From contig CAWJCS010000006.1 of NCBI GenBank assembly GCA_963841435.1, positions 480,001 to 544,000 on the forward strand: 64,000 bases of DNA. The letters run 5' to 3'. A program made the translations under genes and the position numbers. This stretch comes from an uncultured delta proteobacterium. Its GTDB lineage: Bacteria; Myxococcota_A; Polyangia; Polyangiales; Polyangiaceae. A model generated the notes under the pieces. It was not told the origin of the DNA. It saw only the letters and a list, made by a program, of their open reading frames with translations, and did not search any database. Of this stretch, positions 20,837 through 64,000 are shown one piece after another (position 1 is the first letter of the stretch; each line of letters begins with the position of its first letter).

Positions 20837-21262
20837 ACGGCCACCTTTCTGCTCTGTCGCATCGGGGCTCGTGTCTGCGGCCTGCCGCTCGACCACGTCC
20901 GCGAGGTGATGCGTGCGCTCCCCATCGAGCGCGTCGCGGGTGTGCCAAGCTTCGTGCTTGGCGTGAGCGTCGTGAGGGGCGAGCCGTGTCCGGTCGTCAA
21001 CGCAGCCGCGTTGCTCGGCGGCGACGCCCGCTCGGGCGCTCGGCTCGTGTCGCTCCGTGTCGCCGAGCGCAGCGTGGCGTTGCGGGTCGACGCCGTGCTC
21101 GGGACGCGGAGCGTTCCGGACGCCGTGCTCGGCAGCGTGGCGCCGCTCCTTTCGGGCGCACCCGGCCGCGACGCGCTCGGCGCACTCGACGGCCAGCTGC
21201 TCGAGATCCTGGATCTCGCGCGCCTTCTCCCCGTGGAGCAAGCGGCGGAGCTCATGCCTTGA
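20837..21262 (+). CDS. cheW: CheW adaptor 1 (no canonical start codon for the full domain)
   Basis: FLLCRIGARVCGLPLDHVREVMR...FVLGVSVVRGEPCPVV...VALRVDAVLG. Homology begins upstream of GTG 20906; ACG at 20837 follows a purine-rich RBS. Confidence 0.85.
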   Translation, partial: TATFLLCRIGARVCGLPLDHVREVMRALPIERVAGVPSFVLGVSVVRGEPCPVVNAAALLGGDARSGARLVSLRVAERSVALRVDAVLGTRSVPDAVLGSVAPLLSGAPGRDALGALDGQLLEILDLARLLPVEQAAELMP

Positions 21263-23240: not shown

Positions 23241-23241
23241 C

Positions 23242-24708: not shown

Positions 24709-26732
24709 TGCCGAACGACGACCCGTTCAAGTACTTTCGCGTCGAGGCGGTGGAGCTCACCGAGCTATTGACTCAGGGCGCCGCGGCGCTCGAGCAGGGC
24801 CTGGTGCCGCCGGCCGGCGTGGCCGCGCTCTTGCGCCACGCCCACACGCTCAAGGGAGCGGCACGCGTCGTGAAGCAGCCTGAAATCGGCGACCAGGCGC
24901 ACGCCATCGAGGATTTGCTCTCGCCGTACCGCGCGCCCGGGGCGCAGCCGCCGGTCGAGTGCGGGCGGGCGTTGCTCGAGCGTCTCGCGGCCATCCGGGC
25001 GCTGCTCGCGTCGCTGGGCGCGCCGATCGAGCGGCGGAACGCCAAACCTTCGGTTGCCGACGACCTTCGCACGCTGCGCCTCGACGTGAAGGAGATCGAA
25101 GCGGTCGTCGAGAGCGTCGCCGAGGCGCTCGCCGAGCTCGAGCCGTTGCGCGAGGCGCTGCCCGTGCTCGACGACACCAAGAAGCTCAGCGCGTTGCTCG
25201 GTCGGCAGCTCGACGCCGCTCGTTCCGACGATGCGCGGCGCGTCGCGGGTGCGCGCTCGATTGCCGGCAATCTCGAACAGGGCCTGGGCAAGGTCGAGCG
25301 GATCGTTCGGTCCGGGTTCGAGCGGCTCGAGCGCGCGCTCGAGCAGACGCACGTGCGCGCGGAGCGCCTGCGCCTCATTCCCGTCGAGCGGCTTTTCGAA
25401 GTGCTCGAGAGCGCGGGGCGCGAGGCGGCGGCCGAGCTTGGTCTCGAGCTCGTCTTCGAACGCTCGGGCGACGACCTCAGGGTCAACGCGCACGCCCTTG
25501 GCGTCGCCCAGCGCGCGCTGCTCCACGTCGTTCGCAACGTGGTGGCGCACGGCATCGAGCCTCCGGCCGAGCGCGTTGCCGCCGGCAAGCCGCGCGCGGG
25601 CTCGGTGCGGCTCGGTGTGAGGCGAGATCGACGCCAGGTCGTGTTCAGCTGTCGCGACGACGGTCGAGGGCTCGACACCTCGGCGGTTCGGCGCGCGCTG
25701 GAGGCGGCGGGCGTCCACGTCGGCGGCCTCGGCGAGGCTGCCCTGCTCGAACGTCTGCTGGAGAGCGGGGTCTCGACCGCGACCGGTATCACGGGGCTTT
25801 CCGGCCGAGGCCTGGGCCTCGACGTCGTGCGCGACGCAGCGGAGACGCTCGGCGGTTCCGCCCGGCTCTTCACCGAGCGCGGTCGAGGTTTCGGGGTCGA
25901 GCTCAGACTGCCAATCACGGCGCTCTCCATCCCCGGCTTGGCCGTCGAGTGCGAGGGTCGCGTGCTCACCGTTCCGCTCCACGCCGTGCTCGAATGCGCG
26001 CGCCTGCGCCGCGATGAGATTTCGCATGGTGCCGAGGGAGACCAGGTGGCGTACGCGGGGACCCCCGTCCCTTTTGCGCCGCTTTCACGCGTGCTCGGGG
26101 CCACGCCGGGCTCACAGCGCGACGCCTGGGCCGCGCTCTTCGTCCGCGGAGACGGAGGGACGGCGGCCGTCGGCGTCGATCGCCTGCTCGGTCCGCGCAA
26201 CGTCGCCCTGCAGCTATTGCCCGAAGTGGCGCGCGCGAGCAACGTCGTGGCCGGAGCGTCGCTCGACGCGCTCGGCCAGCCCGAGCTCGTGCTCGATCCG
26301 GACGGCCTCGTCGCCAGGATCCGTCGTTCGGCGCACCGCGAGGTCACGCGTCGCGCGCCACGCCGGGTGGTGCTGGTCATCGACGACTCGCTGACGACGC
26401 GCATGCTCGAGCAGAGCATTCTCGAATCGGCGGGCTATGACGTAGACCTCGCCACCTCCGCCGAGGAAGCGCTCGAGCACGCCGACCCCGAGCGCCACGC
26501 GCTGTTTCTGGTCAACGTCGAGATGCCGGGCATCGACGGTTTCACGTTCGTCGAGCGGATCCGCAACGATCCCCGGCTCGGCCGCATCCCGGCCGTGCTC
26601 GTGAGCTCACGCGCCGCTCCCGAGGATCTGGCGCGCGGCAAGGCTCTGGGTGCAGCGGGGTACATGGTCAAGGACCGCTTCGACCAGAAGGAGCTGCTTT
26701 CACTGATCGCGCGACTCGTGGGGCCCGCATGA
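24708..26732 (+). CDS. cheA: Hybrid CheA (Hpt-dimer-HATPase-CheW-receiver)
   Basis: HAHTLKGAAR, RNVVAHGIE, DDGRGLD, SGRGLGLDVV, CheW domain, C-terminal receiver (VIDDS...LVNVEMP...VK). Confidence 0.95.
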   Translation: MPNDDPFKYFRVEAVELTELLTQGAAALEQGLVPPAGVAALLRHAHTLKGAARVVKQPEIGDQAHAIEDLLSPYRAPGAQPPVECGRALLERLAAIRALLASLGAPIERRNAKPSVADDLRTLRLDVKEIEAVVESVAEALAELEPLREALPVLDDTKKLSALLGRQLDAARSDDARRVAGARSIAGNLEQGLGKVERIVRSGFERLERALEQTHVRAERLRLIPVERLFEVLESAGREAAAELGLELVFERSGDDLRVNAHALGVAQRALLHVVRNVVAHGIEPPAERVAAGKPRAGSVRLGVRRDRRQVVFSCRDDGRGLDTSAVRRALEAAGVHVGGLGEAALLERLLESGVSTATGITGLSGRGLGLDVVRDAAETLGGSARLFTERGRGFGVELRLPITALSIPGLAVECEGRVLTVPLHAVLECARLRRDEISHGAEGDQVAYAGTPVPFAPLSRVLGATPGSQRDAWAALFVRGDGGTAAVGVDRLLGPRNVALQLLPEVARASNVVAGASLDALGQPELVLDPDGLVARIRRSAHREVTRRAPRRVVLVIDDSLTTRMLEQSILESAGYDVDLATSAEEALEHADPERHALFLVNVEMPGIDGFTFVERIRNDPRLGRIPAVLVSSRAAPEDLARGKALGAAGYMVKDRFDQKELLSLIARLVGPA

Positions 26733-27799
26733 GCGCGCTCAGGGTTCTCATCGTGGACGATTCGCTCACCGTGCGTTCACGGCTCGCCGAGGTGCTCGGC
26801 GCGAGCGACGACATGTGCGTCGTCGGCGCTGTCGGCGACGGCCAGAGCGCCGTCGAAGCGTGCGCGACGTTGCGCCCCGACGCCATCACCATGGACATGA
26901 TGCTGCCGGGCATGAACGGCTTGCAGGCAACCGAGCACATCATGGCGCACTTTCCCACGCCGATCCTCGTCGTGTCGTCCTCGTTCAATCGCGGCGAGCT
27001 CTTCAAGACGTACGACGCGCTCGCGGCGGGTGCGGTCAACGTGCTCGAAAAGCCGGCGGGTGACGAGCCCGAGGGCGCGTGGGAGGCTCGCCTGCTTGCG
27101 AGCTTGCGTCTCGTCTCGCGCGTCCGCGTCATCACCCACGTGCGTGCACGCCTTGGCACGCCGAGGGCGTCACCGTCACCGGTCGTGAACCTGGGCTGGG
27201 CGGGGTCGAGCCTAAGGCGTCGCGCGATCGCGCTCGGGGCTTCCACGGGCGGGCCTGCCGCGCTCGTGCGCGTCGTTGGCGCGCTGCCCCGCGAGGATCC
27301 CGTCCCCATACTGATCGTGTTGCACCTGGCAGCGCCGTTCGCGGGGGCGTTCGCCGAATGGTTCGGCGCGCAAACGCAGCGGTCGGTGCGCTACGCCGCG
27401 GGCGGCGAGCGCCTCGCCGAGCTCGACCATCAGGTGATCCTGGCGCCCCCGGATCGGCACCTCGTGGTTCGCGACGGTGCGCTCGCGCTAACGCTCGACC
27501 CGGAGCGCCACTCGTGCCGGCCGTCGGTCAACGTGCTGTTCGAGTCGCTCGCGGCCGAGCTTGGTGCGGGCGTCGCGGCCTGTCTACTCACGGGGATGGG
27601 CAAAGACGGCGCGCTCGGGCTCCTCGCCTTGCGTCGCGCGGGGTCCTTCACGCTCGCGCAAGACGAGGCCACGTCGTCGGTGTACGGCATGCCGCGCGAG
27701 GCAGCGCTGCTGGCGGCGGCCGCACGAGTGTTGTCGCTCGACGCGGTGGCGCCGGCGCTCGCGGGCTGGCTGTCGGTCGCCGCAGGCAGGGCGCGGTGA
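26729..27799 (+). CDS. cheB: CheB methylesterase (receiver plus catalytic domain)
   Basis: LIVDDS, MDMMLP; catalytic triad motifs GASTGGP, IVLH and LTGMGKDG; VYGMP. Confidence 0.96.
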   Translation: MSALRVLIVDDSLTVRSRLAEVLGASDDMCVVGAVGDGQSAVEACATLRPDAITMDMMLPGMNGLQATEHIMAHFPTPILVVSSSFNRGELFKTYDALAAGAVNVLEKPAGDEPEGAWEARLLASLRLVSRVRVITHVRARLGTPRASPSPVVNLGWAGSSLRRRAIALGASTGGPAALVRVVGALPREDPVPILIVLHLAAPFAGAFAEWFGAQTQRSVRYAAGGERLAELDHQVILAPPDRHLVVRDGALALTLDPERHSCRPSVNVLFESLAAELGAGVAACLLTGMGKDGALGLLALRRAGSFTLAQDEATSSVYGMPREAALLAAAARVLSLDAVAPALAGWLSVAAGRAR

Positions 27800-29865
27800 T
27801 GCCGACCGTGCTCATCGTCAACGACAGTCTCACGGTGCGCATGGACCTCGTCGAGGCCTTCGAATCCGTCGGATTTCGCTGTCTGGGCTGCGGCACCGTG
27901 CGCGAGGCGACGGAATTTCTCGGGCGCGAGGCGATCGACGTCGCGGTGCTCGACGTGATGCTGCCCGACGGCGACGGCATCGAGCTCTTGGAGCGCGTAC
28001 GGGGCGGCGCAGCGGCCCGCCGCATCGTCGTGCTCATGCTCTCGAGCGAGGCCGAGGTGCGTGATCGCCTGCGCGGGCTCGCGACGGGCGCCGACGAGTA
28101 CGTCGGCAAGCCCTACGAGGCGAGCTACGTCGTTGCCCGCGCCCAGGAGCTGATGGGTGGCGCGGAAGCGGCCTCGGAGCAACCCCTCGTCTTGCTCGTG
28201 GACGACAGTGCGACATTCCGAACCGCGTTCGGTCGGGCGCTCGTCGAGGGTGGCTTTCGCCTGGTCACGGCGAGCTCGGGCGAGGAAGGCCTCCGCATCG
28301 CCGCCGCGCGCGCGCCCAACGCCATCGTCGTCGACGGCGTGTTGCCCGGGATGGACGGCCCCACGCTGATCCGACGCGTGCGCCTCGACGGAGCGCTGCG
28401 CGGCGTGCCTTGCCTGCTCCTGTCGGGGTCGCAAGGCCCGGAGCACGAGCTCGCGGCGCTCGACTCCGGGGCCGATGCCTTCGTCAGCAAGACCGACGAC
28501 GCTCGCGTGATCCTTGCCAAGCTGCGGGCTCTCCTGCGCGCGTCCACCGAGGCCCGCGACGCGCCGCGCACGCGGAGCCTCGCGGGCCCTCGCCGCGTTC
28601 TCGTCGTCGACGACAGCGCGACTTTTCGCGAGACGATGGCGGAAGCCCTGCGGCTCGAAGGCTACGATGTCGTGCAGGTTGCCTCCGGTGAGGAAGCGCT
28701 CGAGCTCGTCGCGGTGCAGCCCGTGGACTGCGTGCTGCTCGATCTCGTGATGCCCGGTCTCGGCGGCACGGAAACCTGCCGGCGGCTCAAGCTGGCCGTG
28801 CCGTCGCGCGACATCCCCGTGCTCGTGCTCACGGCCGTCGAGGATCGATCGGTCGTCCTGGAAGTGCTCGGCGCCGGCGCGGACGATTTCATCCAGAAGT
28901 CGAGCGAGCTCGACGTGCTCAAGGCGCGTGTCCGGGCACAGCTCAGGCGCCGCCAGTTCGAGGACGAGACGCGCCGGGTGCGTGAGCAGCTGCTCCGGAG
29001 CGAAATCGACGCGGCCGAGGCACGTGCGGCCCACAAGGCCGCCGTTTCGCGCATGGCGTTTCTCGAGCGCCTCGCGGAGAAGAATCGGGAGCTCGACCAG
29101 GCCTACAAGGATCTCCAAGCGGCGCAGGCCCAGCTCGTTCAGGCAGCGAAGATGGCGTCGCTCGGCGGGCTCGTGGCGGGTATCGCGCACGAGATCAACA
29201 ACCCGTTGGCCTTCTCGCTCTCGCACCTGTCCACCGCGGAGCGCGACCTCGATGGCCTGGCGGCCTTGGTACTCGGCGCGCTCGGCGATGCCGAGCGTCC
29301 CGCTTGGGAGCGAGCACACACGCGCTTGCGCGAGATGCGCATCGGGCTCGAACGAATTGGTCAGCTGGTGCTCAAGTTGCGCACGTTCTCGCGCCTCGAC
29401 GAAGGAGCGCTCGAGCGCGTGGACATCGTCGAGAGCGTTGATTCCGTTCTCACCATCCTGCAGCACCGGCTCCGCGATCGCATCAACGTCGTGCGTCGCT
29501 TCGACGCGCCGCGCAAGCTCGATTGCTATCCTGGACCGTTGAATCAAGCCATCATGAACCTCGTCGCGAACTCCATCGACGCCATCGCCGGGCAAGGCAC
29601 CATCACCATCAGCACCGACGTGCAAGGCGACCGCTATTGCATCGCCGTGGCCGATACGGGCTCGGGCATCCTGCCCGAGCACCGCGAGCAGGTCTTCGAT
29701 CCGTTCTTCACGACCAAGCCCGTGGGGCAGGGCACGGGCCTCGGCCTCAGCATCACGTACGCCATCGTGCGTCAGCACGGCGGTGAGCTCGTCGTTTCAC
29801 AGCCGAGCACCGGCGGCACGACGATGACCATGCGCTTGCCCCTGTCGCAGGAGGGTGCGGCGTGA
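27799..29865 (+). CDS. Triple-receiver histidine kinase (Rec-Rec-Rec-HisKA-HATPase)
   Basis: Three receivers (VLDVMLP, VVDGVLP, LLDLVMP), H-box [36 protein letters not shown] 27799 overlaps the cheB stop. Confidence 0.93.
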
Positions 29866-31790
29866 GCGCGAACGCGGCTCAGCGCGTGCTCGTCGTCGAC
29901 GACGAGCCCCAGGTGCTCGTGGCGCTCGAGGATCTCCTGCGCGACCAGTTCTTCGTGCTCACGGCCGACTCCGCCGAACGCGCTCTCGCCGTCGCACGGC
30001 GCGAGCCCGACATCGCCGTCGTCTTGACCGACCAGCGGATGCCCGGGATGAGCGGTGACGAGCTCCTCACCCAGCTCGCGGGCTCGCTACCCGCCGAGCG
30101 CATCCTGCTCACGGGGTACGCCAACGTCGCGGCCGTCGTGAGAGCCGTCAACGAAGGCCGCATCTTCGCGTACGCCACGAAGCCGTGGAACCCCGACGAC
30201 CTGCGGATCAAGGTGGCGAAGGCCGCCGAGCGCTACCGGCTCGCCACGGAGCTCACCCACGAGCGAGAGCTCTTGAATCGCGTGCTCGGTGGCATGGCCG
30301 ACGGCGTCATCGCCGCCTCCCGCAGCGGAGAGCTTTTGCTCTTCAACCTGCAAGCGGAGCGTCTGCTCGGGATCCAGGCGTCGCGGTTCGACCCGCGGAC
30401 TTGGCTCGAGGCCTGCGGCGTTCACGAGCCCGACGAACGCACGCCGCTCGATCCGGCTCGCGATCCGCTGCGCCACGCGATGGACGGACGGCCCCAGGGC
30501 GATTGCGAGATTTTCGTGAAAAATGCGCGGGTCGAGGGGGCGTTTCTTTCCGTCGCTTCGGCCGAGCTGCGCGACGAAGCGCGCGCGGTCGTCGGCGGCG
30601 TCCTCGTCTTGCGGGACATCACCGACCGAAGGCGGCTCGAGAGCGAGCTCGCCCAGGCTCATAGGGTGGAAGCCCTGGGAATGCTGGCGGGCGGCGTGGC
30701 TCACGACTTCAACAACATGCTCGCCGTGATCACGGGCCACGGGGAGCTGTTGCTCGGTGAGCTCGCCGAAGACGACGCTCGGCGGCCCGATCTCCTGCAG
30801 ATGCTGACGGGCGCGCGCCGCGCAGCGGGTCTCACGCGACAGCTGCTCACCTTCAGCCGCAAGCAGGTGCGACGGCTCGAGATCGTCAACGTGAACCAGA
30901 TCGTGGCGGGCATGCGCAGCATGCTCGAGCGGGTGATCGGGGAGGACATCGCGCTTTTCGCCGAGCTTTCGCCCGACCTGTGGCCGGTGCGTGCGGACGT
31001 GAGCCAGCTCGAGCAGGTGTTGCTCAATCTCACGGCGAATGCGCGAGACGCAATGCCGTCGGGCGGACGTTTCACGATCCAGACCGCAAACGTCGCGGCG
31101 AGCGCCGCGGGCGAGGGGCGCGTGCGCCTCGCCGTGACGGACACGGGTGTCGGCGTCGACGACCAGACGCGTCTCCGCATGTTCGAGCCGTTCTTCACGA
31201 CCAAGGAGCCCGGGCGCGGAACCGGCCTCGGCCTTGCCACGGTGCAGCGCATCGTGCAGGAGCTTCACGGCGAGCTTCGGGTCACGAGCACGGTCGGCCA
31301 GGGCACGACGTTCGTGTTGGACCTGCCAGCCGCGCCGGGCCTCACGCCGGCGGGGCTCGGCACCAGGCGATCACTTTCGCCCATTGCCGAGGGTGGCGCT
31401 TCGATCCTCGTCGTGGAGGACGAGGACGCCGTCAGGAAGGTCACGGCGCGCCTCCTGCGCCAGCGTGGCTACGCCGTGCTCGAGGCGCGGCTGCCAGGCG
31501 ACGCGCTCGAGCTTTGCGAGCGGGAAAGCACGCGCGTCAACCTGCTGCTCGCGGACGTCGTCATGCCGCAGATGGCTGGGCCCGAGCTCGCCGAGCGACT
31601 GCGGCGCATGCGCCCCGATCTGCGCGTGCTCTACGCCTCTGGTTACTCGGCATCGAGCGTCGCCGAACGCGGCGTCAACGTGCTCGGTGCTGCCTATCTC
31701 GAGAAGCCATTCTCGGCGGAAGCGCTCTACGCGGAGGTCGCCGCGGCGCTCTACGGGCCCACGAGCCTCACGCCTCGTTCCGCGCCCTGA
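29862..31790 (+). CDS. Hybrid histidine kinase (Rec-PAS-HisKA-HATPase-Rec)
   Basis: VVDDEP/TDQRMP/TKPW, PAS ([17 protein letters not shown]), [20 protein letters not shown], final receiver ADVVMP/EKPF. Confidence 0.93.
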
Positions 31791-35484: not shown

Positions 35485-35486
35485 TC

Positions 35487-52800: not shown

Positions 52801-55204
52801 GATACGCGAGCGAGATCGTCGGGTCGAGCGCGATGGCGCGTTCCAGCCACGTGTCAACGTCCGCGGGATCGCGGAGCTCGCTGCGGATCGTCGCCTCGAC
52901 GAGCGAGAGCGCGGCGTGCGTCGAATCCTCGCAGGCTTCGGCGAGGCGCACGAGCGCCGCGCTCGCCTCCTGGGCATCGAGCGTCGCGAGCCGCGCGCGC
53001 AGCGGTGCCTCGAAGCTCGCGTCGAGATCCGTCGCCTCACGGTAGGCATCGCGTGCTGCGCTCTCGTTGGAGCCGAGCTCGGAGAGCAGCGCCCGCAGCA
53101 GCGCTCGATCGCGCGCCGACGGCTGATTCGGCCCCGGCGTGCCCCATTCGCCGAGCGCCTCGCCCACGCGCTCGGCGGCGCTCGCGAGCACGAGGAGCTC
53201 GATGTCGAGCACGCGCGACAGCGCATGGTCGGCGTGCTCGGCACGGAAGCCGTCCACCGACGCGAGCAGCGCCATCGCAGAATTTTCGGCGCCGGCCTGC
53301 GAAAGCGCGCGACCGAGCGCTGCCTCGCTGCGCGACGTCTCGTTGCCGGCTTCGCCGCTCGGTCGACCGGACGTTGCGAGAACGGCGGCCCTGAGGGGAG
53401 CAAAGGTCTCGCCCTCCAGGGCCTCGACGCGGCTCCCGAGCGCTTCGCCGGTCGCGCCCGTGAGCGCGGCGAGCACGAGTCGATCCTCGGGCGTGAAGGC
53501 GTCATCGCTTGCCGCCAGCGCCTGTTCGAGCAGCGCGGCGTCACCGAGCTCGAGCGCTCGCGCGGCGAGGCTGCGGCGCGCGGCACGCTGATCGGGGCCT
53601 TCTGTCAGGGCTTGCAGCCGGTTCCCGCCGTCCGCGCGGGTCGCCGGATCGTGGATGAGTAGCGCCGCGGAGAGCCACGCCGAGGCGCCGGCGAGCCCCG
53701 CGACCTCGCCGACCTCGGAGAGCGCGGCGGCGGCCCCGGCGCGATCCCCCTGCGACAGGGCGCGGCGAGCGATCGCGAAGGCAGCGGCTCCCGTGCGGTC
53801 GGCCGGCTCCCCGACGCCGCTCCGGAGGGCCACGATTCGGCGCAGTGCCCTCGCGATGGGCAAGAGCTCCGGCTCGTCGGGCAGCGTTTCTGTGGGCGCT
53901 GCGGCGGATTCGCCGAGGGCCCGCGAGAGCCGCGCCAGATGCCCACGAGGATCGTTCGGCTGCGCGCTCACCGCGAGCTCGAGCCTCTGCTGCGCCGCGG
54001 CGTCGTCGCCGAGGCAGAGCCGGTGCACCTCCGCGTCGAGGAACGCTGCGTGCGAGCGAGCCTCCGGCGTGGAGGCGCTGCGAAGCTCGAGCTCGAGCGT
54101 GCTCGCGACGGTCTTCCAGTCACCTCCGGCGGCGGAAAGCCAGCGGAGCTGCCGCCCCGCGACGGCGCCTCGTCCCGCGGCGCTCGCGTCCTGCGCGGCT
54201 CGGCGGGCGCGCTCGAGATCGCCGGCGATCGCCCAGATTTCGCTCGCCACGACCAGCGCACGCGAGCGGCTCGCCGGATCGGAAATGCGGCGCGCTTCCG
54301 TCTCCATCCATTCGGCGCGCAGCACCCACTCGTCGGCATGACCCGGCTGTGGGACGAGCGGCGCCGGTGCGCCCGGCGGTGCCACGGAGGCCGGTAGCGA
54401 GGGAGCCGGCACCGATATGCGGCGGGGCGCGGCGACGGGTGGCGCGCGCACGGCGGGTGCCGACCCGAGCACCGGAACCGGCGGAGGCTCGGGGGCAATG
54501 CGCGCGGGAGCAGGCTCGCTGGCGGAGGGCGGGCTCAGGCTCTCGAGCTCTTCGAGCGCCGCGATCTCCGCGTTGCTGAGCGACGTGCGCTGGCTCTCCG
54601 GCGCTTCGTCTGGTTCCTCGTCGATGCGGAAGTTCGGAGGCGGTGGAGCAGTCGGCGCGGCTTCCACCGGTGAGGGCGAGCGCCCGAACGCGCTCGGCGA
54701 ACCTGGCCGCGGTGGCTTGACGCGTGTCGTCGGTGCGGGCGTGGCACTTCCCGGCCGCGGCACGGCGGGCGGTGACCGGAGCCCCGGCGCCGGAGGCCTC
54801 CCGGCCGCGGGTGGCTGCATGAGCGGCGTGCGCGCGGTGGTGTCGCGCTCGGCCAGCTTCGGCAGCCTCGGTAGCGGGGGAGCGGCGAGGCCGCCTTTCG
54901 ACGGCGAGTCGAACATCTCGCGCGGTCCGACGAGCGTCACTTCGTCGTCGGGGTAGCTCGGTCGGAAGGTTTCGCGATCCTCCGCATCGAGCGGCTCGGG
55001 CTCGATCGACTCCGGGGGCTCGGATTTTGCCGGTGGGGGCGGCGGCGCCGTGCGAGGAGCATCGTCGTCCATCAAGGAGTCGAGCAGGGCATCGGGCTCG
55101 AAGTCGAGATCGCCGCCCAAGGCCTTGCCGATCGTGCCGGGGGTACCGCTCGCGCCCGCACCGGGGCGCGGCGGTCGCGTGCCGCGGTCGTCCGAATCAC
55201 TCAT
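49849..55204 (-). CDS. Giant TPR-repeat protein B (Pro-rich N-terminus, degenerate M48-like C-terminus); apparent +1 frameshift near 50744
   Basis: ATG 55204 overlaps the upstream stop (ATGA). Continuous Ala/Leu/Glu-rich TPR helices. Joining ORFs 50570..55798 and 49849..50892 gives 1784 aa. Confidence 0.85.
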
Positions 55205-58200
55205 CGGACCCCCATTCCGAGCCGCTCGCGCAGCATCAGGTACGGCGGCGAGAGGACGAACGAGAGGAGTCGGCGCATCCGCTCCTGGCCTTCGAGCGAC
55301 GCGGCCGGGCGCCCGCGGTTCCTGGCGTCGCCCGCCAGCACCCAGGAGACGTCGCCGGCCGCAACCGCCGCCATGCGGTCGAGGCTCGACGTCGCTGCGC
55401 GATAGAACGTCAAGAGGTCCTGCCCGGAATCCGCGACCTCGCGAGCGAGCTCCGGCAAGAGCTTCTTCACCCGGCGTGGCATCTCCTTGCCGAGCTGGCG
55501 CTGGAACTCCGTCAGCATGGCGAAGGGCGGCGCGTCGAGCTCGATGCCGCCGAGCTTGCAGGCCGCCACGACGAGCGCCGACACCTCGGGCGCCTCGCGA
55601 TGACCGAGCACGGTGGTCCCCCGGCGCAGCGCGAAGAGCTCGCGCGCCACCGACTGCCGGTAACCGGGGGAAAGCGGCGCCCGCACGCCCTCGCCGACGA
55701 CGAGGCTCGGCGGGTCGCTGGCGACGCCGAACACGGCGCCCGGATCCCGCCCGCCCACGTACACGTCGATCTCGGGGATGCCGAGCGCTCCGGCCCACGC
55801 GACGATCTCGTTGCGAATGGGGTGCCCCGCCTTCGGGTCGACGCGCTCCTTCTTGCTGACCCCGAGCGCCGCGAGGTTCGGTCCGATCGCCGCGGAGATC
55901 GTGGTTCCGAGCTCGCGCATGAGCCGCGCGAGCGCGCCGCCGTCCTCGGGGTCCGCGAGATTGGGAATGGAGTCCTCGTCGATGGCGATGCTCGGAACGT
56001 GTGCGACGCGCCGGTCGAGCTTCGCGAGCTCCGTGTCGAGCGGCCCCGGTTCCACACCGAGCGCCACGAGCGCGCCGAGTGTCGCTTGACGCAACGGATC
56101 GTCGCCGAGCGCGAGCGCGATGCGGGAGAGACGCTCCACGTTTTCGAGCTCGACCTTGCCGGCGCCGAGCGCCCCGGCGACGGCTATCCTGCCGGCATCG
56201 AGCAGCGGCACACTAAAGTCGCTCGGGAACGCACCGCCGAGCACCAGATCGAGCCCCTCGCCGTCGCCCGGGATCTCCGACAGGAGCTTGAGCGCCGCGG
56301 AGCGCGCCGAGGCCGGATTGCCGAGCCGGTCGCGCCGGATCGCGAGCGCGAGTCGCGCCGCCTCCGAGCGCCCCGCCGCCGCGTCGCGCTCGGTCATCAA
56401 GAGCTCGAACGTGGTCGCCGCGCGCTCCCACGCGCCCGCCTTGGCGGCGACACGTGCCAGCCGCTCGCGGACCTGCGCCGTGCCGAGCCCGGCGTCCTGC
56501 AGGCCGACGAGGACCGCGAGGGCGGAGGGCAAGTCCTTGAGCTTGTTCTCGCAGATGTCCACGGCGGCGATGCCGCTCATCAGGCGCTGCTGAGTGGGAG
56601 CGCCCGAGAGGCCCGAAAGGCGTCCGAGCTGCTCGGCAGCCTCGCCGAATCGCCCGAGCGTGAGGTGGATCTCGCCCGAGAGGGCGAGCGCGCCCACGTG
56701 GTCCGGCTCGAGCATGCGCACGTTCTCGAGGGCTGACAACGCTCCCTCGCGGTCGCCCGACGCGCGCATCACGCGCGCCCGCTCCCAGAACAGCTTGACG
56801 ATCTCGTCCGGGTCTTCGGCGACGTCGAGCCGCCGCGCGATGAGATCGAGCAAGCGGGGACCGTCCTTGCGTTCGCGCACGATGCGGAACAGCCGGTCGA
56901 ACGCGCTGCCGCGTCTGATGTCTCGTTGGACCGCGCGACTCAGCGCGAGCTCACCGCGCTCGCGATCGTCGAGCTCGTCCATCAGAGATCGTGGCAGCGC
57001 GCTCCCAGAGCTCGGCGCCGCGAGCGTCGTCGTGCACGGCGTCGCCCAGTGCGGCCGCGGCCTCGGCGACCACCGATTTGTCGCCCACGAGCTCTGCGGC
57101 GGCGCGCAGGCCTTCCCAGCCGATCACTTCCTGCGGAGCCGCCTCGACGACGCCCCGAAACGTCGACATCGCGGCGTCGGCGTCGCCGGCGGCCAGCTGG
57201 TTGTAGCCCGCGAGCGCCTGGGTCACGGCGAGCGAATCGTCGCCGAACAGCGTGCTCGCTCGCGCGAGCGCGTCGCCGCGGCGCCTGGGGTCGGAGCCGG
57301 GCGGCGCGATCTCGACGTTGGCGAGCAGCACGGGAGCGCTCCCGCCGTCGAGAGGCGGCGGCTCCTCGAGCCCCGTGAGCCAGGCCGCGAGGCTCGCGCT
57401 CGCGGCGATCGCCTCGCCGCTCTCTCCGCCGAGGCGCTGGGCGAGCGCTCGGCGCGCCGCGACTTCGGCGCCGACGTCATTTTTCGCGGCCGCGGCGGCC
57501 AACCATTCGAGCGCCGCCGCCGCGGACGCGTCAACCTCCGCCCAGCGCGCGGCCGTGGCTTCGGTCTCGGCCGCGTCGGGTCGCCCGCCCTTGGCCTGCG
57601 CGAGCTCGAGCTCGAACGCCGCGGCGCGCGCGAGCGCGGCCGCGTCCGTGCTTTTTTCGGCAAGCGTGTCGAGCGCCGCTGCCCGCTGCGTGCGCTCGGT
57701 GCCGTCCCAGAGGGCCGTCGCGAGCAAAAGCGCCGCTCCGGGACCGTCTTCGGGGGGCATGACCGCGCGCGCCAGCGCCGCACGCGCGAACGGCTCCTGG
57801 CCCGAGGGCCCCACTTCCAGCGTGAAGCGCTCGAGAGCGTTCGTTGCGAAGTCCGTGGCCTCGGACGCCTCGAGGGCGCGCCGCCGCGCTTCCGGCGCAT
57901 CGGGATCCGCGGCGCGAAGCGCCCACGCGGCCATCGAGCTGGCAGCTTTCTCCGAGGCCTCGGCGGCAAGCTCGAAGGCTTCGAGCGCCCGCTTCTTGTC
58001 GCCGCCGCGCCACTCGATGAGCCCCGCTTCCAATCGCAGCGCCGCGCCGAGCTCATGGTCGCCCGTTGCGCCGGCCAGCGCGAGCAGAGCGCGCGCCGCT
58101 TCCACCGGCCTTCCGGCGCTCGCCTCGAGGGTCGCGAGCGCCACGCCGGCCACGGGATCGCCCGGCTCGTCGTCGGCGAGCGCGGCCAAAAGATCCCGCG

Positions 58201-60017
58201 CAACGTCGCTTTCGCCTGCCCTTAAGGCGCGGAAAGCCGCAGCCATGCGCTCGGCACGCGCGAGCTCCTGGTCGGTCTCGTCTCGTGCGAGCGCCACGAG
58301 CGGCGCCCAGGGCTCGGCTGCGGCAGGCGGGGCGTGCGTGGCACCGGGTGCGGGCGCAGCCTGCGTCGCCGCCTCGGCGTCGCTCGTGGCGTCGCGCTTC
58401 GGAAGCAGCTCGAGCGCGAACGCTTTGAGAGCGTTGCCGAGGAATGCTCCTCCGGGAGTCTGGGCGATGGCGTCGAAGGCGCGCTCCGCTGCCGAGCGAT
58501 CCCCGCGCAGCGCGCGCGCGCGGCCGAGCTCGAACCAGAGACTCGGCTGCTCGTCCGGCGAGACGCCCTGGCCGATGACCCGGCGCGTCGACTCCTCGTA
58601 CCAAGTCGCGTCGTCGATCGACGCCGCCAGCAAGCGCCCGACGCGCGCGACGAGCGTCGGCGGCGCGCCGGCCATTCCGGCCTGTGAAAGCGCCGCGCGC
58701 GCCCCCTGGGAGTCGCGGGCCTGGCGAGCCCAGAACGTCGGCTGCGACGAGGTAGAACCCCGCGCGCGCTCGGTCCGTTGCCACGCGCTCCGCTGCGGCT
58801 TCGAGCGCCGTCGCCGTGGCCGGCGCGTCCCCGCTCGCGCTCAAGAGGTCGAGCTCGAGCGCGCGCGCGGGGATGCTGCTCGCATCCTCCTTCAGCGCCC
58901 GTCGCACGGCGTCGAGCGCTCCGGCCCCGTCCGAGTCGGCAGCGGCCGCCTCGGCGACGCGCAGCCACAGCGCTGCGGCGAGCTGCCCGACGGCGCCCGC
59001 CTCGAGCTGCGACCGGGCGAGCCGCGCCATCGTGGAGGAGTCGCCCGTTGCCTCGGCGGCAGTGAGTCGAGCGTGGGTAAGCGCCGGGTCGCCCGGCAGC
59101 TCGGCGAGGGCCTTGTCGAGCAAGGCCGTCGCGTCGAGCGGCGAGCCCGCCTGCCGGTGGGCTTCGGCCGCGCGGAGCCAGCTGTCGGCCGCATGAGCCG
59201 CGGAGCGCCGGTGGAGCGGTACGCCGAGCCCGTCACCCGCGGACGCGTCGGCCGTGGCCTTCTGGATGAGCTCCGCCTGTGCCTCGAGATAACGGGCCTC
59301 GAGCTCGCGGCGCCCCACGGCCTTCGCGAGCCGCGCGCCGCGTTCGAGCGCGATGAACGTGGCCGGGCCATCGAGCGAAATGGCCTCGTCGCACGCTGCC
59401 TCGACCCCGGCGTCGTCCGCCGCGGCGGCGTGGAGCGCAGCGAGGTCGAGCAGGAGCAGCGCGCGCCATTCGGGCAGCGTCGCGAGCGCGGCACGCTGGG
59501 CGAGCGCCCGTTCCTCGAGCTCGTGATCGCCGGCCTTGAGCGCGAATAGCTCGAGCGCCAACCAGACGCTCACGTTGCCCGGGACCTCGTCGGCGGCCTG
59601 CTCGGCGAGCGCACGCGCTCGACCGGCGTCCCCTTCCTGGTCGAGCACGAAGAACGCCTGCTCGAGGAGCGCGCGGACCCGCTCGTTGGGGTTCGAGGCG
59701 ACCTTGACGAGCCGATCGAGGAGCTTGCCCAGGTTTTTGTAGGACTGGCGTCGCTCGATGATCGCGATGAGCCGCTCGAGGGGCTCCGTGAAATCGGGCT
59801 CCGCGTTGACGGCGGCCAGCTGGTCGCGGGCGGCGGCCGCCTCATCCCCGAGCGCCTCCTCGAGCACCCCGACCTCGTGCAGGAGGATCGCCTGCCGTGC
59901 CGTCGTGCCTCCGGCGTCGTGCTCGGCGCGCAGCCGGTTGATGGCCGCCACGACCAGCGCCGAGTCCTGCGCTGCCGACGCCGAGAGAACGCTCCCCGTC
60001 CTGGTCGTGCTCGTCAT
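55201..60017 (-). CDS. Giant TPR-repeat protein A (degenerate M48-like C-terminus); apparent +1 frameshifts near 58734 and 56986
   Basis: Three ORFs join cleanly (AADV/WARQARD and AATI/LMDELDD) after removing two single bases, giving 1604 aa. Confidence 0.85.
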
Positions 60018-61030: not shown

Positions 61031-64000
61031 ATGTTCAAGGTCGAGTGCCCTGGGTGCAAGGCCCCGTACCAGGTTGACGAGCGGAGGGTACCTTCCTCCG
61101 GTCTCAAGATGCGCTGCCCGAAGTGCGGCACGTCCTTCCAGGTCGAGGCTCCAGACGATCCGCGCCGCACGGGGCCGAGCCCCGTGCTCGGCGAGGCACC
61201 TCCGCCCCGTAAAGATCCACGCGCGCCGCTCAAGAACCCCGCGGCGAGGACGATGGTGGGCGTCGCGCCGTCGGCGCTCGGCCTGCCGTTGCCTGGCGCC
61301 AAGCCCCCCGCGGCTCCTGCGGCGCCGCCCGCACCCGCGCGTCCACCACTCCCGGCGCCCCAGCCGCCGGCTGCCCCGAAAGCCGCTCCACCGCGGCCGC
61401 CACCGCGCGTCGCCGCGCCGGGCCCGCCTCCCCCCCAGGATCCCTACGCGGACGCCGATCTCCCAGCGATCGGCGCTCGGTCGGACGTCAACCTCCCGGC
61501 GCCTGCCGGGCGACCGAAGCCACCGCCACCGGTACGAGGTCAGGCCCCAGCCGCGCCTCCCAAGAGTCCGTCGACGCTGCCCCCCGACGACGTCAACATG
61601 CTCGACGACCTGCCGGCCGTCCCCGGCGGCTCCGGCCTCGACATCGACCTCCCTTCCCCCGCTCCGCCCGCTGCGCTTTCGGTGGCTGGCCCGTCCCAGG
61701 GCGCGGACCTGCCGGCGCTGGCGGGCGACCTCGAATGGGGCCTTCCCGACATCGGTCAGCGCGCCGACCGGGGCGCCCCCGCGGCGTCGGTCCCCGCACC
61801 CACGATGGAGCTCGACCTCCCCGACCTGCCGGACCTCGACTTCCCGGCGCCCCAGGGCGACCTGCCGTCCCCAGCCGGAGCGGGGCTGCCTTCGGCCGCG
61901 CGCGGTCCGGGGCTCCCTGCCGCGTCGGCTGGGCTGCCCGCAGCGAGTGCCGGTCTGCCGGCCGTCTCGGCGGGGCTGCCCTCGGCCTCGGCTGGGCTGC
62001 CGGCGTCTTCCGCCGGCCTGCCTGCTTCGTCAGCGGGTCTTCCGTCGGCGTCGGCAGGTCTCCCGTCAGCCTCGGCGGGCCTCCCGTCAGCCTCGGCCGG
62101 TGTGCCGAGCCGCGCGCCGGGCCTTCCTGCTAATCACCCGGGGGGCGGAGCGTCGTCCCCGGGCTTCGGCGAGCTCGATCTCGATCTGACGCCCGGCGCG
62201 CCCTCGGGGGCGCCGCCCTTGCTCGATCTCGGTGCCCGGCAGCCGAGCGTTGCCCCGCCCACGAGCGGCGGCTTCGGGGAGATCGATTTGCCGCCTCGCG
62301 CGAGCGGGCAGCCCATGGCGATGCCGAGCGCGCGGCCGTCGCCGCAACCGTTCGATCCGCTCGAAGCCGACCCGTTCGGCGAAGCCGCGATCCCGTCGCA
62401 ACGGCCGATGGTCGAAGCGCGGCGGTCCGCCCCGCCCGCAGAGGTCGTCGGGTCGCAGGTGGGTGGCACGAGCTACGGCGAGGTGAACCTCGACGGCGAA
62501 GGCGATGGGGGCGGCAGCGGCGGCGAGGTCCCGCTCGAGGGCGCTCCGATCCGTTCGGGTGCGGCCCGCGAAGAGGACATGGAGTTCGGCGCGCTGCCGG
62601 AGCAACGGCCCCCGGGCGCCATGAAGGCGGACGTCGGCCCGGCGGTGCCGGCGGCGCGGCGGCGCTGGCCCCTGCGGGTCTTCGCGGGGCTGCTCGTGCT
62701 CGCCGTGGGCGGCGGCTCGCTCGCGTTCGTGCCCGGCGCGGGACCATACGGTGCGTACTTCATCAGCGACCGCCTCCATGCCGCCGAATACGGGCGGCTC
62801 CTCGGCGACGCGCAGCGCGCTGCCCGCGCGAGACTCGGCCACGACATCTGGCCGGAGGCCGTGCAGGCGTCGGTCAACGTCGACGCGACCCACGAGAAGG
62901 CGAAACGCTTCTATCCGCTCGCGACCTACGCCGCCTTCACCGGCTACCTCCGCGAGCTCAGGTTCGGCTCGGACCCGGCAGCGCACGCGCGGGGGCAGGT
63001 GCTGCTCGCGGAGATCGGGGACGCGAAGGACGTCCCCTACCTCGACTTCGCCGTGACGGCCCGCGACGCGCTCGACGGGCAGCTCACGCGCGCGCTCGAG
63101 AGCGCGCGCTCTCTCTCCCAGCGCCATCCGAACGACCCCGACGCGCTCGCGCTGCTCGGCGAAGTCGCGCTGCGCGGCGCCGACCCCGCGGCGGCCAAGA
63201 GCCCGTGGCAGGCGCTCGAGAAGCTCGAGCACAGCGCGCGCTCGGCGTTCGGTATCGCTCGGGCAAGCTACGTGACCGGCGACATGACGGCCGCGGCGGC
63301 GGCCGCCCGCCAGGCACTCGAACGCACCCCCGGGCACGTCGGAGCGCGCGTCCTCCTGGCCCGCATCGACTCCTTCGGCCGCGGCAACGAGGCGCGGAGC
63401 CTCCAGGAGATTGCCGACCTCCTGAAGAGCGCCGGCCGCGCCAGCCCCGACGAGGTGGTGTCCGCCCAGACCCTGCTCGGCGAGATCCATCTCGGCCGGT
63501 CCCAGGTGGCGCTCGCCGAAGTTGCGTTCGACCGCGCCCTCAAGATCAATCCGAGCGCCGCTCGCGCGCTGGCCGGCCTCGGCGAAGCCCTATTCCGTTC
63601 GCGACGCTTCTCCGAGGCCCTCGCCCGTTTCGAGTCCGCTTCCCAGGCCGATCCTCGGGCTCTCGAGGCGAAAATCGGAGTTGCCAAGAGCAAGCTCTCG
63701 CTCGAGCGGGTCGAGGACGCGCTGCGCACCCTCGCGAAGCTCGAAAAGGAGAACCCGAAGAGCCTGGCCGTGTCGCTCTGGTACGGCAGAGCCGCCGATG
63801 CCGCGGGCGATCACGATCGCGCCGCGGCGATCTACCGAAGGGCGCTCGACAAGGGCTCGACGGATCCAGAGCTCGTCGACATCTACGTGGCGCTCGCCAT
63901 GCTGGAAAACGAGCGCGGTGAGACCGCGCGCGCTCAGCAGACGCTGGTGCGAGCCAAGGCAAAGCTCCCCGAATCGGTCGCCCTGCACCGCTCGCTCGGC
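61031..64000 (+). CDS. MJ0042-type zinc-ribbon / Pro-rich linker / TM / TPR protein (3'-truncated by the window; absent from the ORF track)
   Basis: ATG 61031 after AGAGG: MFKVECPGCKAPYQVDERRVPSSGLKMRCPKCGTSFQV. The frame stays open to the window end, with a TM helix at ~62666-62731 followed by TPR helices. Confidence 0.9.
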   Translation, partial: MFKVECPGCKAPYQVDERRVPSSGLKMRCPKCGTSFQVEAPDDPRRTGPSPVLGEAPPPRKDPRAPLKNPAARTMVGVAPSALGLPLPGAKPPAAPAAPPAPARPPLPAPQPPAAPKAAPPRPPPRVAAPGPPPPQDPYADADLPAIGARSDVNLPAPAGRPKPPPPVRGQAPAAPPKSPSTLPPDDVNMLDDLPAVPGGSGLDIDLPSPAPPAALSVAGPSQGADLPALAGDLEWGLPDIGQRADRGAPAASVPAPTMELDLPDLPDLDFPAPQGDLPSPAGAGLPSAARGPGLPAASAGLPAASAGLPAVSAGLPSASAGLPASSAGLPASSAGLPSASAGLPSASAGLPSASAGVPSRAPGLPANHPGGGASSPGFGELDLDLTPGAPSGAPPLLDLGARQPSVAPPTSGGFGEIDLPPRASGQPMAMPSARPSPQPFDPLEADPFGEAAIPSQRPMVEARRSAPPAEVVGSQVGGTSYGEVNLDGEGDGGGSGGEVPLEGAPIRSGAAREEDMEFGALPEQRPPGAMKADVGPAVPAARRRWPLRVFAGLLVLAVGGGSLAFVPGAGPYGAYFISDRLHAAEYGRLLGDAQRAARARLGHDIWPEAVQASVNVDATHEKAKRFYPLATYAAFTGYLRELRFGSDPAAHARGQVLLAEIGDAKDVPYLDFAVTARDALDGQLTRALESARSLSQRHPNDPDALALLGEVALRGADPAAAKSPWQALEKLEHSARSAFGIARASYVTGDMTAAAAAARQALERTPGHVGARVLLARIDSFGRGNEARSLQEIADLLKSAGRASPDEVVSAQTLLGEIHLGRSQVALAEVAFDRALKINPSAARALAGLGEALFRSRRFSEALARFESASQADPRALEAKIGVAKSKLSLERVEDALRTLAKLEKENPKSLAVSLWYGRAADAAGDHDRAAAIYRRALDKGSTDPELVDIYVALAMLENERGETARAQQTLVRAKAKLPESVALHRSLG
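61910..62140 (+). repeat. Intragenic 21-bp tandem repeat encoding GLP(A/S)xSA, 9 good plus 2 degenerate units
   Basis: Units start at 61910, 61931, 61952, 61973, 61994, 62015, 62036, 62057, 62078, 62099 and 62120. Confidence 0.92.

Follow-up and report, generated by a model that had tools for sequence, protein, structure and literature searches.

The Asp-to-Asn changes found throughout this genome can almost certainly be put down to base-calling errors that persist in a long-read assembly and are not real mutations. Consensus mis-calls at two methylated palindromes, GTCGAC and GACGTC, would form the whole explanation with a probability of about 0.87. A technical artefact of some kind is very likely, and methylation, which we infer to be its trigger, is likely. 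The genome (6 contigs, 7.78 Mb, 69% G+C, soil, rated 95% complete) is probably that of a Polyangiaceae-like myxobacterium assembled from a long-read metagenome, and the window is the whole stretch of 64,000 nucleotides analysed from it. Under the proposed mechanism, about one third of GTCGAC sites, and GACGTC sites to a similar extent, would be mis-written in the consensus, with the G directly 5' of A called as A to give GTCAAC or AACGTC, and the opposite-strand error seen as C-to-T to give GTTGAC or GACGTT. Where the motif lies in frame, GAC (Asp) would become AAC (Asn), or GTC would become the rare synonymous codon GTT.

GTCGAC occurs 4316 times in the genome, GTCAAC 2824 times and GTTGAC 1873 times; the corresponding counts are 563, 111 and 114 in 705 kb from relatives, and 37, 27 and 7 in the window. 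Hexamers that are one-base neighbours number around 1000 each in the genome and are symmetric (ATCAAC/GTTGAT 1027/1031, CTCAAC/GTTGAG 1127/1080). The baseline for codon-pair ratios is the 705 kb of relatives only, which share ∼67% DNA identity with the genome. Against it, the in-frame ratio of GTT-GAC to GTC-GAC is 575:2517 in the genome and 7:327 in the relatives, an approximately 10-fold excess, and the ratio of GTC-AAC to GTC-GAC is 1806:2517 and 99:327, respectively. The control ATC-AAC:ATC-GAC matches between the two (942:3166 and 89:259). A sequence-only reading of the window had proposed a systematic replacement of GAC by AAC at GTCGAC-like sites, mirrored by silent GTT GAC cases, and both parts are borne out by these genome-wide excesses.

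The second affected palindrome, GACGTC, lay beyond that reading and is changed to AACGTC or GACGTT. GAC-GTT:GAC-GTC is 717:1706 in the genome and 23:262 in the relatives, and AAC-GTC:GAC-GTC is 1824:1706 and 105:262, while the control AAC-GTG:GAC-GTG again matches (1323:3385 and 144:354). Only these two 6-base palindromes of restriction-site type are strongly affected, and GAC elsewhere is spared, as in the ATC-AAC and AAC-GTG controls. The affected motifs are short and fall in reverse-complement pairs, and the excess forms (GTCAAC, GTTGAC, AACGTC and GACGTT) are transitions only, G-to-A or C-to-T. The pattern is present in the sequence far beyond chance.

In both motifs the altered base is the G directly 5' of A, or the mirror C. 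The earlier proposal that the CpG carries a modified cytosine is not supported, the altered bases in GACGTC being the outer G1 and C6. This bears on true hypermutation, in which C5 methylation of GTCGAC would be followed by deamination of 5-methylcytosine to T without Vsr repair. The GTCGAC changes do fall on the CpG bases, as that account needs, but the GACGTC changes lie outside the CpG, and GAT-GTC, the CpG-position change in that motif, is not in excess. Its ratio to GAC-GTC (365:1706 in the genome, 30:262 in the relatives) is higher only because the GAC-GTC denominator shrank.

The 18 sites picked out in the sequence-only reading all read as described there. GTCAAC accounts for 10 of the 12 Asn sites, the other two being CCCAAC (28315) and GCCAAC (30120). 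The six silent cases comprise four GTTGAC in + strand genes and two + strand GTCAAC within − strand genes, and all six are in-frame GTT GAC by arithmetic from the ORF coordinates. Relatives were aligned to the sites by tblastn, with paralogous receiver domains among the matches. The sites are as follows.

8231..8236, + strand: in murE, Val-Asp encoded in frame as GTT GAC; probably GTCGAC with its C mis-called as T, silent.
9607..9612, + strand: in-frame GTT GAC in murF, preceded by GAC so that the motifs overlap (GACGTTGAC); silent.
20996..21001, + strand: GTCAAC in cheW (PVV-N); no relative aligned by tblastn; Asp in the solved CheW chains 2ho9_A and 8c5v_E, Asn in 3ja6_A.
25482..25487, + strand: GTCAAC in cheA (RV-N-AH); D in 6 and E in 2 of 8 relatives; probable mis-called GTCGAC (Asp).
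26511..26519, + strand: GTCAACGTC, both motifs overlapping, where the CheA receiver (LV-N-VEMP), covered by a Pfam Response_reg match, has its phospho-acceptor; D in 29/29 aligned sequences and 34/34 in another comparison, paralogous receivers included; probable mis-called Asp.
27035..27040, + strand: GTCAAC in the CheB receiver domain (GAV-N-VLEKP); D 7, E 1 and Y 1 of 9, with D in all four best orthologs; probable mis-called Asp.
27527..27532, + strand: GTCAAC in the CheB methylesterase domain (RPSV-N-VLF; Pfam CheB_methylest), at what is presumably the catalytic-triad Asp of CheB; D in 8/8 relatives; probable mis-called Asp.
27817..27822, + strand: GTCAAC where a receiver (LIV-N-DS) has its first acidic-pocket residue; D 11 and E 1 of 12; probable mis-called Asp.
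30123..30128, + strand: AACGTC, the second motif, within GCC AAC GTC (TGYA-N; listed as 30120); D in the best ortholog (65% identity), more distant matches varying; probable mis-called GACGTC (Asp).
31536..31541, + strand: GTCAAC in a hybrid kinase receiver (V-N-LLLAD); D 4 and H 1 of 5; probable mis-called Asp.
34206..34211, + strand: in-frame GTT GAC in ORF 32886-34955; silent, frame by ORF-coordinate arithmetic.
47262..47267, + strand: GTCAAC in the C-terminal part of the alpha-2-macroglobulin gene (FFV-N-H); weak matches (E 0.003-0.008) with Asn in 4u48_A and 4u4j_A and Asp in 4ziu_A.
48413..48418, + strand: GTCAAC in pbpC (VV-N-N); Asn in both solved PBP1a alignments that cover it (5u2g_A, 3udf_A), and possibly natural here.
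52853..52858, − strand: + strand GTCAAC, in-frame GTT GAC in TPR gene 50573-55798; silent, with GTC next and AACGTC overlapping.
57530..57535, − strand: + strand GTCAAC, in-frame GTT GAC in ORF 56954-58675; silent, frame by ORF-coordinate arithmetic.
61073..61078, + strand: in-frame GTT GAC in the zinc-ribbon/TPR gene starting at 61031; silent.
61487..61492, + strand: GTCAAC (DV-N-LP); no relative or solved homolog aligned.

That Asp is the consensus at the Asn sites is supported for seven of the 12 and undecided for four (20996, 47262, 48413 and 61487). The remaining one, 28315, is unrelated, as CCCAAC is without the motif and the four best orthologs carry L, A, T and T. Three unlisted GTCAAC sites, at 24391, 24568 and 30147, have Asn in the best ortholog too, and so carry natural Asn.

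Orthologue comparison across the genome shows Asp in the relatives at 32 of 98 GTC-AAC sites in + strand genes and at 7 of 80 in − strand genes, with a background of 142/2134 at other AAC sites. At AAC-GTC sites the figures are 12/77 in + genes and 4/84 in − genes. Across the genome's 136 receiver domains, a conserved Asp reads as Asn at 13 of the 65 positions with the codon in either motif, compared with 2 of 213 outside the motifs (Fisher p 1.6e-7), and all 13 sit in + strand genes. In the receiver column represented by 27817, all 8 Asn are encoded as GTC AAC GAC in + strand genes. Even near-invariant Asp, such as the CheB catalytic position and receiver phospho-acceptors, is altered at about the genome-wide rate, and the changes are without purifying selection.

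With four giant homopolymer runs set aside, GTCAAC/GTTGAC is the most strand-asymmetric hexamer pair in the genome (z 13.9). GTCAAC outnumbers GTTGAC on 6/6 contigs and in 66 of 78 100-kb bins, the ratio being 1.42 in regions of positive GC skew and 1.63 in regions of negative skew. Coding bases are balanced between the two strands. GTT-GAC is found 201 times in + genes and 374 times in − genes, and GTC-AAC 1051 and 755 times, respectively. What the bias tracks is therefore the arbitrary + strand of the assembly, whatever the GC skew or the strand of the gene.

Natural variation together with lineage codon usage could account for part of the Asn and GTT codons, as some half of the GTCAAC occurrences should be natural, Asn is shared with the best ortholog at the three unlisted sites, and several listed sites are undecided. 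As the explanation of the pattern its probability is negligible, given the GTT-GAC excess, the restriction of Asn at near-invariant receiver Asp positions to the motif context, Asp in relatives at one third of + strand GTC-AAC sites, and the strand asymmetry. Hypermutation is also poorly reconciled with a bias that tracks the assembly strand on every contig regardless of GC skew, and with near-invariant Asp altered at the genome-wide rate. It would further need a very recent burst, with about one third of sites altered and the rest intact. A real in vivo conversion of the G 5' of A, or the mirror C, at both motifs could be driven by a methyltransferase or a targeted deaminase in a recent burst outrunning selection. 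This is extremely unlikely, and a separate cause would be needed for the assembly-strand bias.

Other features are marks of an unpolished long-read assembly, and together with the 6 contigs for 7.78 Mb they are indirect evidence for nanopore reads. Frameshifts affect essential genes too. The Pfam domains of ftsI, the alpha-2-macroglobulin gene and pbpC are each spread over two reading frames, one C5 methylase and one N6_Mtase gene are likewise split between frames, and kilobase homopolymers are present (1573 A then 445 T; 191 T then 354 A). The best 8 of 215 read pieces from one run, which spans a small share of the stretch, included none over a motif site, and the metagenome collection yielded no conspecific contig.

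The methyltransferase genes comprise one C5 gene (PF00145), three full and two partial N6_N4 matches, one Dam-family gene and N6_Mtase matches. Their homologs carry generic names only, with no gene tied to GTCGAC or GACGTC, and no restriction partner was recognised in the genome. The RE_XamI family (PF09572), which we take to cover a GTCGAC-cutting enzyme, had no match in the genome, and the control search was likewise blank in 14/14 control genomes. Of the C5/N4 methyltransferase and vsr genes suggested as worth seeking by the sequence-only reading, the C5 gene and the N6_N4 matches are present, and Vsr (PF03852) has no match in the 95%-complete genome. The C5 methylase adjoins an HhH-GPD glycosylase and an MTaX1 domain gene, and this arrangement and the lack of a Vsr match would speak for hypermutation; the C5 gene is, however, frameshift-split in the assembly, and taken with the evidence above hypermutation is very unlikely. 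Of the DNA-level cause advanced earlier, the sequencing shadow is favoured and the true hypermutation is not. RNA editing, already disfavoured there on the silent cases, need not be invoked, since the silent changes arise about as often.

A fixed k-mer context bias of the basecaller or polisher, acting without methylation, is the remaining alternative. The assembly-strand asymmetry does point to software, and a general G-to-A/A-to-G bias persists in amplified DNA according to excerpts of one report (bioRxiv 10.64898/2026.01.14.699587). Such a bias is unlikely, as only two palindromes of restriction-site type are strongly affected while GAC in control contexts is spared, and the same excerpts place the R10 error excess at methylated motifs, with values near zero elsewhere.

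The most likely trigger of the mis-calls, we infer, is methylation of both palindromes by the organism's own methyltransferases, and the best guess for the modified base is N6-methyladenine at the A beside the mis-called G. Methylation would distort the signal on one strand of each read, the platform presumably being nanopore, and the assembler or polisher would retain the wrong base where strands disagree. The + strand preference might arise, at a guess, from tie-breaking or reference bias in polishing. In the sections available of three reports, residual errors in R10.4.1 assemblies are mainly C-to-T and G-to-A, strand-specific in reads and located at modification motifs (PMC11610603), R/Y ambiguous positions in nanopore data share RA/TY as minimal motif and disappear after PCR (PMC11610573), and methylated motifs in R10 reads give predominantly G-to-A errors (bioRxiv 10.64898/2026.01.14.699587). 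M.AatII is described, in the portion of PMC3287169 available, as methylating the adenine of GACGTC (m6A). The rule common to the two palindromes, a G directly before A, fits both the RA/TY error motif and the m6A of M.AatII.

Some counts go against an artefact. A process blind to coding would be expected also to turn GT CGA C into a stop (GT TGA C) or to change Arg to Gln (GT CAA C). Only 3-4 read-through-like stops in GT-TGA-C were seen, with no enrichment over other TGA contexts, and GT-CAA-C numbers 51 against 49-67 in control contexts, on a small base with 67 GT-CGA-C left. Such a process should also give equal Asp-to-Asn and silent excesses, but rough hand estimates put the former somewhat higher, at ∼690 against ∼500 for GTCGAC and ∼680 against ∼460 for GACGTC.

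This kind of artefact has already been described and is of low biological interest, and its main import is as a quality warning, since the predicted proteins of this genome carry many false substitutions. A crude gene set covering ∼60% of the genome is roughly estimated to hold ∼1,400 false Asp-to-Asn and ∼950 false synonymous changes. Several of them destroy apparent catalytic or phospho-acceptor residues, and ftsI-type genes are frameshifted as well. 'Degenerate' receivers, an 'inactive' CheB or odd codon usage reported from this genome would be misleading, as would its use in training protein models. The pattern also gives a hint of the methylome, predicting for an uncultured lineage that GTCGAC and GACGTC are methylated, with GATC perhaps a weak third motif. 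Such errors are detectable from a finished assembly alone, the signs being strand asymmetry of reverse-complement k-mers and an excess of a rare synonymous codon in one context.

Among known systems, those of AatII type (GACGTC) and SalI type (GTCGAC) recognise the same hexamers, in which the G mis-called here is directly 5' of an adenine. The modification made by M.SalI is m6A. Haloarchaeal enzymes of SalI type for GTCGAC are listed as m5C (PMC11033074). In contrast to these systems, no restriction enzyme is recognised here, and the enzymes may be orphan methyltransferases.

Hot spots of 5-methylcytosine deamination, such as the Dcm-type sites repaired by Vsr and the decaying CpG of vertebrates, are similar in that C-to-T and G-to-A transitions arise within a methylated motif, with symmetry at the sequence level. 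Selection filters genuine hot spots, and these have no link to the arbitrary strand of an assembly, whereas here near-invariant residues are altered, and one motif is altered outside the CpG.

The closest features are shared with R10.4.1 methylation errors, as reported in the excerpts compared (PMC11610603, PMC11610573, bioRxiv 10.64898/2026.01.14.699587). There also, G-to-A and C-to-T occur in reverse-complement motif pairs, the mis-called purine precedes A (RA/TY), a fraction of sites flips, and the error is strand-dependent, here as an asymmetry between assembly strands. Unlike those cases, the evidence here comes from assembled sequence and from an environmental genome rather than an isolate, and GTCGAC and GACGTC are not among the motifs named in the excerpts. 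The flipped share of about one third and the consistent bias to the + strand of the assembly look larger here than the figures in those excerpts, some of which count ambiguous read positions and not consensus errors.

GTCGAC occurs 4316 times in the source genome (G000; 7,783,927 bases in 6 contigs, C1 to C6, with 69% G+C), GTCAAC 2824 times and GTTGAC 1873 times. Neighbouring hexamers that differ in one flanking base are symmetric, at about 1000 copies each (ATCAAC 1027 and GTTGAT 1031; CTCAAC 1127 and GTTGAG 1080; GTCAAG 1165 and CTTGAC 1219). The baseline, made up of three relatives and seven orthologous loci (705,093 bases), contains 563, 111 and 114 copies of GTCGAC, GTCAAC and GTTGAC, respectively, and the nearest genomes compared share about 67% DNA identity with G000. 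Codon pairs were counted in a crude GC3-based gene call of 3,900 ORFs, which covers 58-65% of each contig and is a sample, not an annotation; the same gene caller was applied to the relatives.

Codon-pair ratios at GTCGAC and GACGTC and in control contexts (this genome; relatives)
GTT-GAC : GTC-GAC, 575:2517; 7:327
GTC-AAC : GTC-GAC, 1806:2517; 99:327
ATC-AAC : ATC-GAC (control), 942:3166; 89:259
AAC-GTG : GAC-GTG (control), 1323:3385; 144:354
GAC-GTT : GAC-GTC, 717:1706; 23:262
AAC-GTC : GAC-GTC, 1824:1706; 105:262
GAT-GTC : GAC-GTC (change at the CpG of GACGTC), 365:1706; 30:262

The excess of Asp-to-Asn and of silent GTC-to-GTT changes that the sequence-only reading had proposed for the GTCGAC context is thus beyond chance relative to both the neighbouring hexamers and the relatives. 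It extends to the third frame, where G TCA AC is found 120 times against 15-25 in control contexts. A rough hand estimate that takes the ratios of the relatives as its baseline puts the converted share of in-frame GTC-GAC in the crude gene set at about 32% (∼690 to Asn, ∼500 to GTT); the Asn excess is somewhat above the silent one, but within the uncertainty given the small baseline. No dependence on single flanking bases outside the hexamer was found. Context-matched tests were used, as plain codon-pair bias was swamped by ordinary context effects; a whole-genome 6-mer comparison with the relatives was dominated by lineage codon usage (e.g. CTG versus CTC).

The two altered forms are not equally distributed with respect to the strand on which the assembly is written. 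All six contigs are biased alike (GTCAAC/GTTGAC 138/98, 427/311, 570/387, 321/239, 731/450 and 637/388), and of 78 bins of 100 kb, 66 have more GTCAAC than GTTGAC. Grouping the bins by GC skew gives a ratio of 1.42 for positive and 1.63 for negative skew, and C3 and C5, whose skew is opposite to that of C4 and C6, show the same bias as these. Coding bases are evenly split between strands. The silent form, GTT-GAC, is found 374 times in minus-strand genes and 201 times in plus-strand genes, and the Asn form, GTC-AAC, 1051 times in plus-strand and 755 times in minus-strand genes, which is what G-to-A on the plus strand alone predicts. Among hexamer pairs, only AAAAAA/TTTTTT ranks above GTCAAC/GTTGAC in asymmetry; it was discarded as a homopolymer bias, its source being four giant runs.

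When GTCAAC/GTTGAC and the giant homopolymers were masked, the top remaining strand-asymmetric words led to AACGTC/GACGTT and, weakly, to AATC/GATT. When synonymous codon pairs were scanned with matched contexts, both GAC-GTT and GTT-GAC came out with the strongest outliers. A second palindrome, GACGTC, is therefore affected, at its outer G1 and C6, and about 40% of in-frame GAC-GTC in the crude gene set has been converted (∼680 to Asn, ∼460 to GTT; again a rough hand estimate on the relatives' ratios). The difference from the relatives in GAT-GTC arises because the GAC-GTC denominator has shrunk. The common rule is that the G immediately 5′ of A within either palindrome, or the mirror C, changes. 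The CpG, at which the sequence-only reading placed the modified cytosine, is not what the two motifs share, since the changes in GACGTC lie outside its CpG. GAGCTC was considered as a third motif and rejected: GAG-CTT stands at 1371:8594 versus 45:713 in relatives, but CTT is generally commoner here, and AAG-CTC has no clear excess. On the assembly plus strand AATC exceeds GATT (11285 versus 10614, z 4.5) and AATCG exceeds CGATT (5113 versus 4610, z 5.1), and relative to GATC the frequency of AATC/GATT shows no clear difference between G000 and the relatives. GATC is possibly a third, weakly affected motif under the same rule. CTT is also unusually common before TCG and GCC compared with relatives (CTT-TCG 1332 versus CTC-TCG 2283; CTT-GCC 866 versus 6840), which may reflect either lineage codon usage or another C-to-T error context.

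The window (C6:480001-544000) contains 37 GTCGAC, 27 GTCAAC and 7 GTTGAC, and the genes in question belong to three Pfam-supported groups.

Cell-wall and division cluster: rsmH, ftsI, murE, murF, mraY, ftsW, murG, murC, ftsQ, ftsA
Chemotaxis cluster: cheW, cheR, mcp, cheA with a receiver domain, cheB, hybrid kinases
Alpha-2-macroglobulin and pbpC pair

All 18 sites picked out from the sequence alone match it. The 12 described as Asn for Asp are GTCAAC in 10 cases, the exceptions being 28315 (CCCAAC) and 30120 (GCCAAC followed by GTC), the latter explained by GACGTC being affected as well. The six silent sites are as described, with four GTTGAC on the plus strand and two GTCAAC on the plus strand inside minus-strand genes, and arithmetic from ORF coordinates places GTT GAC in frame at all six.

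Residues in aligned sequences at individual window positions
25482: D in 6 and E in 2 of 8 aligned relatives
26511: D in 29 of 29 aligned sequences
27035: D in 7 of 9 relatives
27527: D in 8 of 8 relatives
27817: D in 11 of 12 relatives
31536: D in 4 of 5 relatives
30120: D in the best ortholog
28315: L, A, T and T in the four best orthologs; outside the pattern
20996: D or N in solved CheW chains
48413: Asn in both solved PBP1a chains that align there
47262: either residue among weak matches
61487: no aligned relative or solved homolog
24391, 24568 and 30147 (further GTCAAC sites): Asn also in the best ortholog

Some half of all GTCAAC sites can therefore be expected to be natural, which agrees with the baseline.

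The crude protein set was also compared by tblastn with ∼1.1 Mb of relatives' DNA (hits with ≥40% identity over ≥80 residues); one match, the best, was used per position, and paralogs were kept in.

Asn codons aligned with Asp in a relative
GTC-AAC: all genes 39/178; plus-strand genes 32/98; minus-strand genes 7/80
AAC-GTC: all genes 16/161; plus-strand genes 12/77; minus-strand genes 4/84
Other AAC: 142/2134

GTC-AAC differs from other AAC with Fisher p 5e-10; for AAC-GTC, p is 0.14 if the identity threshold is 40% and 0.011 if it is raised to 55%. An internal test came from response-regulator receiver domains, of which 136 were found with a profile built from G000's own copies; the columns scored were the three conserved Asp, two in the acidic pocket and the phospho-acceptor. 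Asn occupies 13 of 65 such positions in GTCGAC or GACGTC context versus 2 of 213 elsewhere (Fisher p 1.6e-7), and all 13 are in plus-strand genes (13/44 versus 0/21 in minus-strand genes). Selection has had no effect on these changes, because the 20% Asn rate is approximately the genome-wide conversion rate. The decisive feature is that the changes track the arbitrary plus strand of the assembly, which marks them as very probably artefact, not mutation; unfiltered by selection as they also are, they leave the hypermutation alternative of the sequence-only reading without support.

If the error were blind to coding, GT-TGA-C stops and GT-CAA-C codons would be expected too. Strict settings found one such stop between two coding-like stretches and looser settings 3-4, with no enrichment over other TGA contexts, the expected number being small. 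GT-CAA-C is not enriched either (51 versus 49-67 in controls). With only 67 GT-CGA-C sites left, the test is weak. From the one public soil-metagenome run found (X1; share 0.05), 122 short contigs were aligned with no differing letters listed, and none of the pieces listed (8 of 215) covers a GTCGAC-type site. Scanning metagenome contigs with a 22-base unchanged cheB stretch revealed no conspecific contig; the three matching loci have either 70% identity or a local match only. Overall, a sequencing shadow of a modified base, the other alternative of the sequence-only reading, is very probably the best explanation (probability about 0.87), while its assignment to a CpG cytosine is without support. 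That the platform was nanopore, which base is modified and why the plus strand is preferred are inferences.

Other errors appear to be present in the assembly, including frame splits within single genes.

ftsI, window 5477-7946: PBP_dimer in ORF 5477-7048 and Transpeptidase in ORF 6714-7946, in different frames
Alpha-2-macroglobulin (with pbpC in window 41618-49835): MG2, MG3, BRD and A2M in one frame, MG10 in another (ORF 45696-47411)
pbpC: C-terminal BiPBP_C domain at 48735-49835, in a frame other than that of the Transgly and Transpeptidase parts
L061, C2:6749-7674: PF02384 (N6_Mtase) match in two pieces in different frames

The ftsI frame switches near 6690-6720, directly behind '...VVVVDPSNG', with '...GEILALASVPYFNPND' as the continuation in the other frame. 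As ftsI is essential, a broken copy in a living cell is not credible, and a single-base indel error is probable. The splits in alpha-2-macroglobulin, pbpC and L061 are probably also frameshift errors. Outside the window, C2:851351-853368 consists of 1573 A followed directly by 445 T, and C6:1694909-1695473 of 191 T followed by 354 A; these giant blocks are almost certainly spurious products of reads or assembly, and the contigs may be mis-joined there.

G000 carries one C5 methylase, one Dam-family enzyme, N6_Mtase matches, and three full-length and two partial N6_N4 matches.

L029, C2:543460-547302: the sole C5 cytosine methylase, split over two frames
Dam-family methylase, C3:1365235-1365954
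L031, C5:1636625-1637380: N6_N4 methyltransferase

Besides L031 and the Dam-family enzyme, candidate methyltransferases lie at C5:1323682-1324404, C6:1000658-1001410 and C2:544769-545802. Scans of the methyltransferases against Pfam and NCBIfam and a single search for homologs gave generic names only and tied no enzyme to either motif, and Vsr had no match in G000. The neighbours of L029 are an MTaX1-domain ORF, an HhH-GPD/endonuclease III-like glycosylase and an Mrr_N-domain ORF; L029 may be a methylase that comes with a dedicated mismatch-repair glycosylase. L031 has very many homologs of ∼340 residues (65-80% identical) in environmental assemblies, some labelled Polyangiaceae, and its ORF is open over 547 codons, ∼200 beyond them; judged by these matches, it looks like a conserved lineage-wide methylase, possibly an orphan.

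Enzymes that recognise these palindromes are known. M.SalI forms m6A in GTCGAC. The adenine of GACGTC is given as the methylation target of M.AatII in part of one paper (PMC3287169), and haloarchaeal m5C enzymes for GTCGAC are mentioned in part of another (PMC11033074). The artefact is of an already known kind and its biological interest is low; its practical value is that thousands of wrong bases are flagged in a public genome, and the error pattern predicts two methylated motifs. In the sections available of a study of R10.4.1 nanopore assemblies, residual substitutions are chiefly C-to-T and G-to-A at modification motifs, are strand-specific in reads and survive two different polishers (PMC11610603). 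Excerpts of a second describe 'ambiguous' R/Y positions as reverse-complement motif pairs with a minimal shared motif RA/TY, mostly gone with PCR-based libraries (PMC11610573). A preprint, as far as its accessible text goes, reports that G-to-A prevails among the methyl-motif errors of R10 reads, with >50% alternative base at some sites (bioRxiv 10.64898/2026.01.14.699587). As these partial accounts describe them (PMC11610603, PMC11610573, bioRxiv 10.64898/2026.01.14.699587), nanopore methyl-motif errors are of the same class as the changes in G000.
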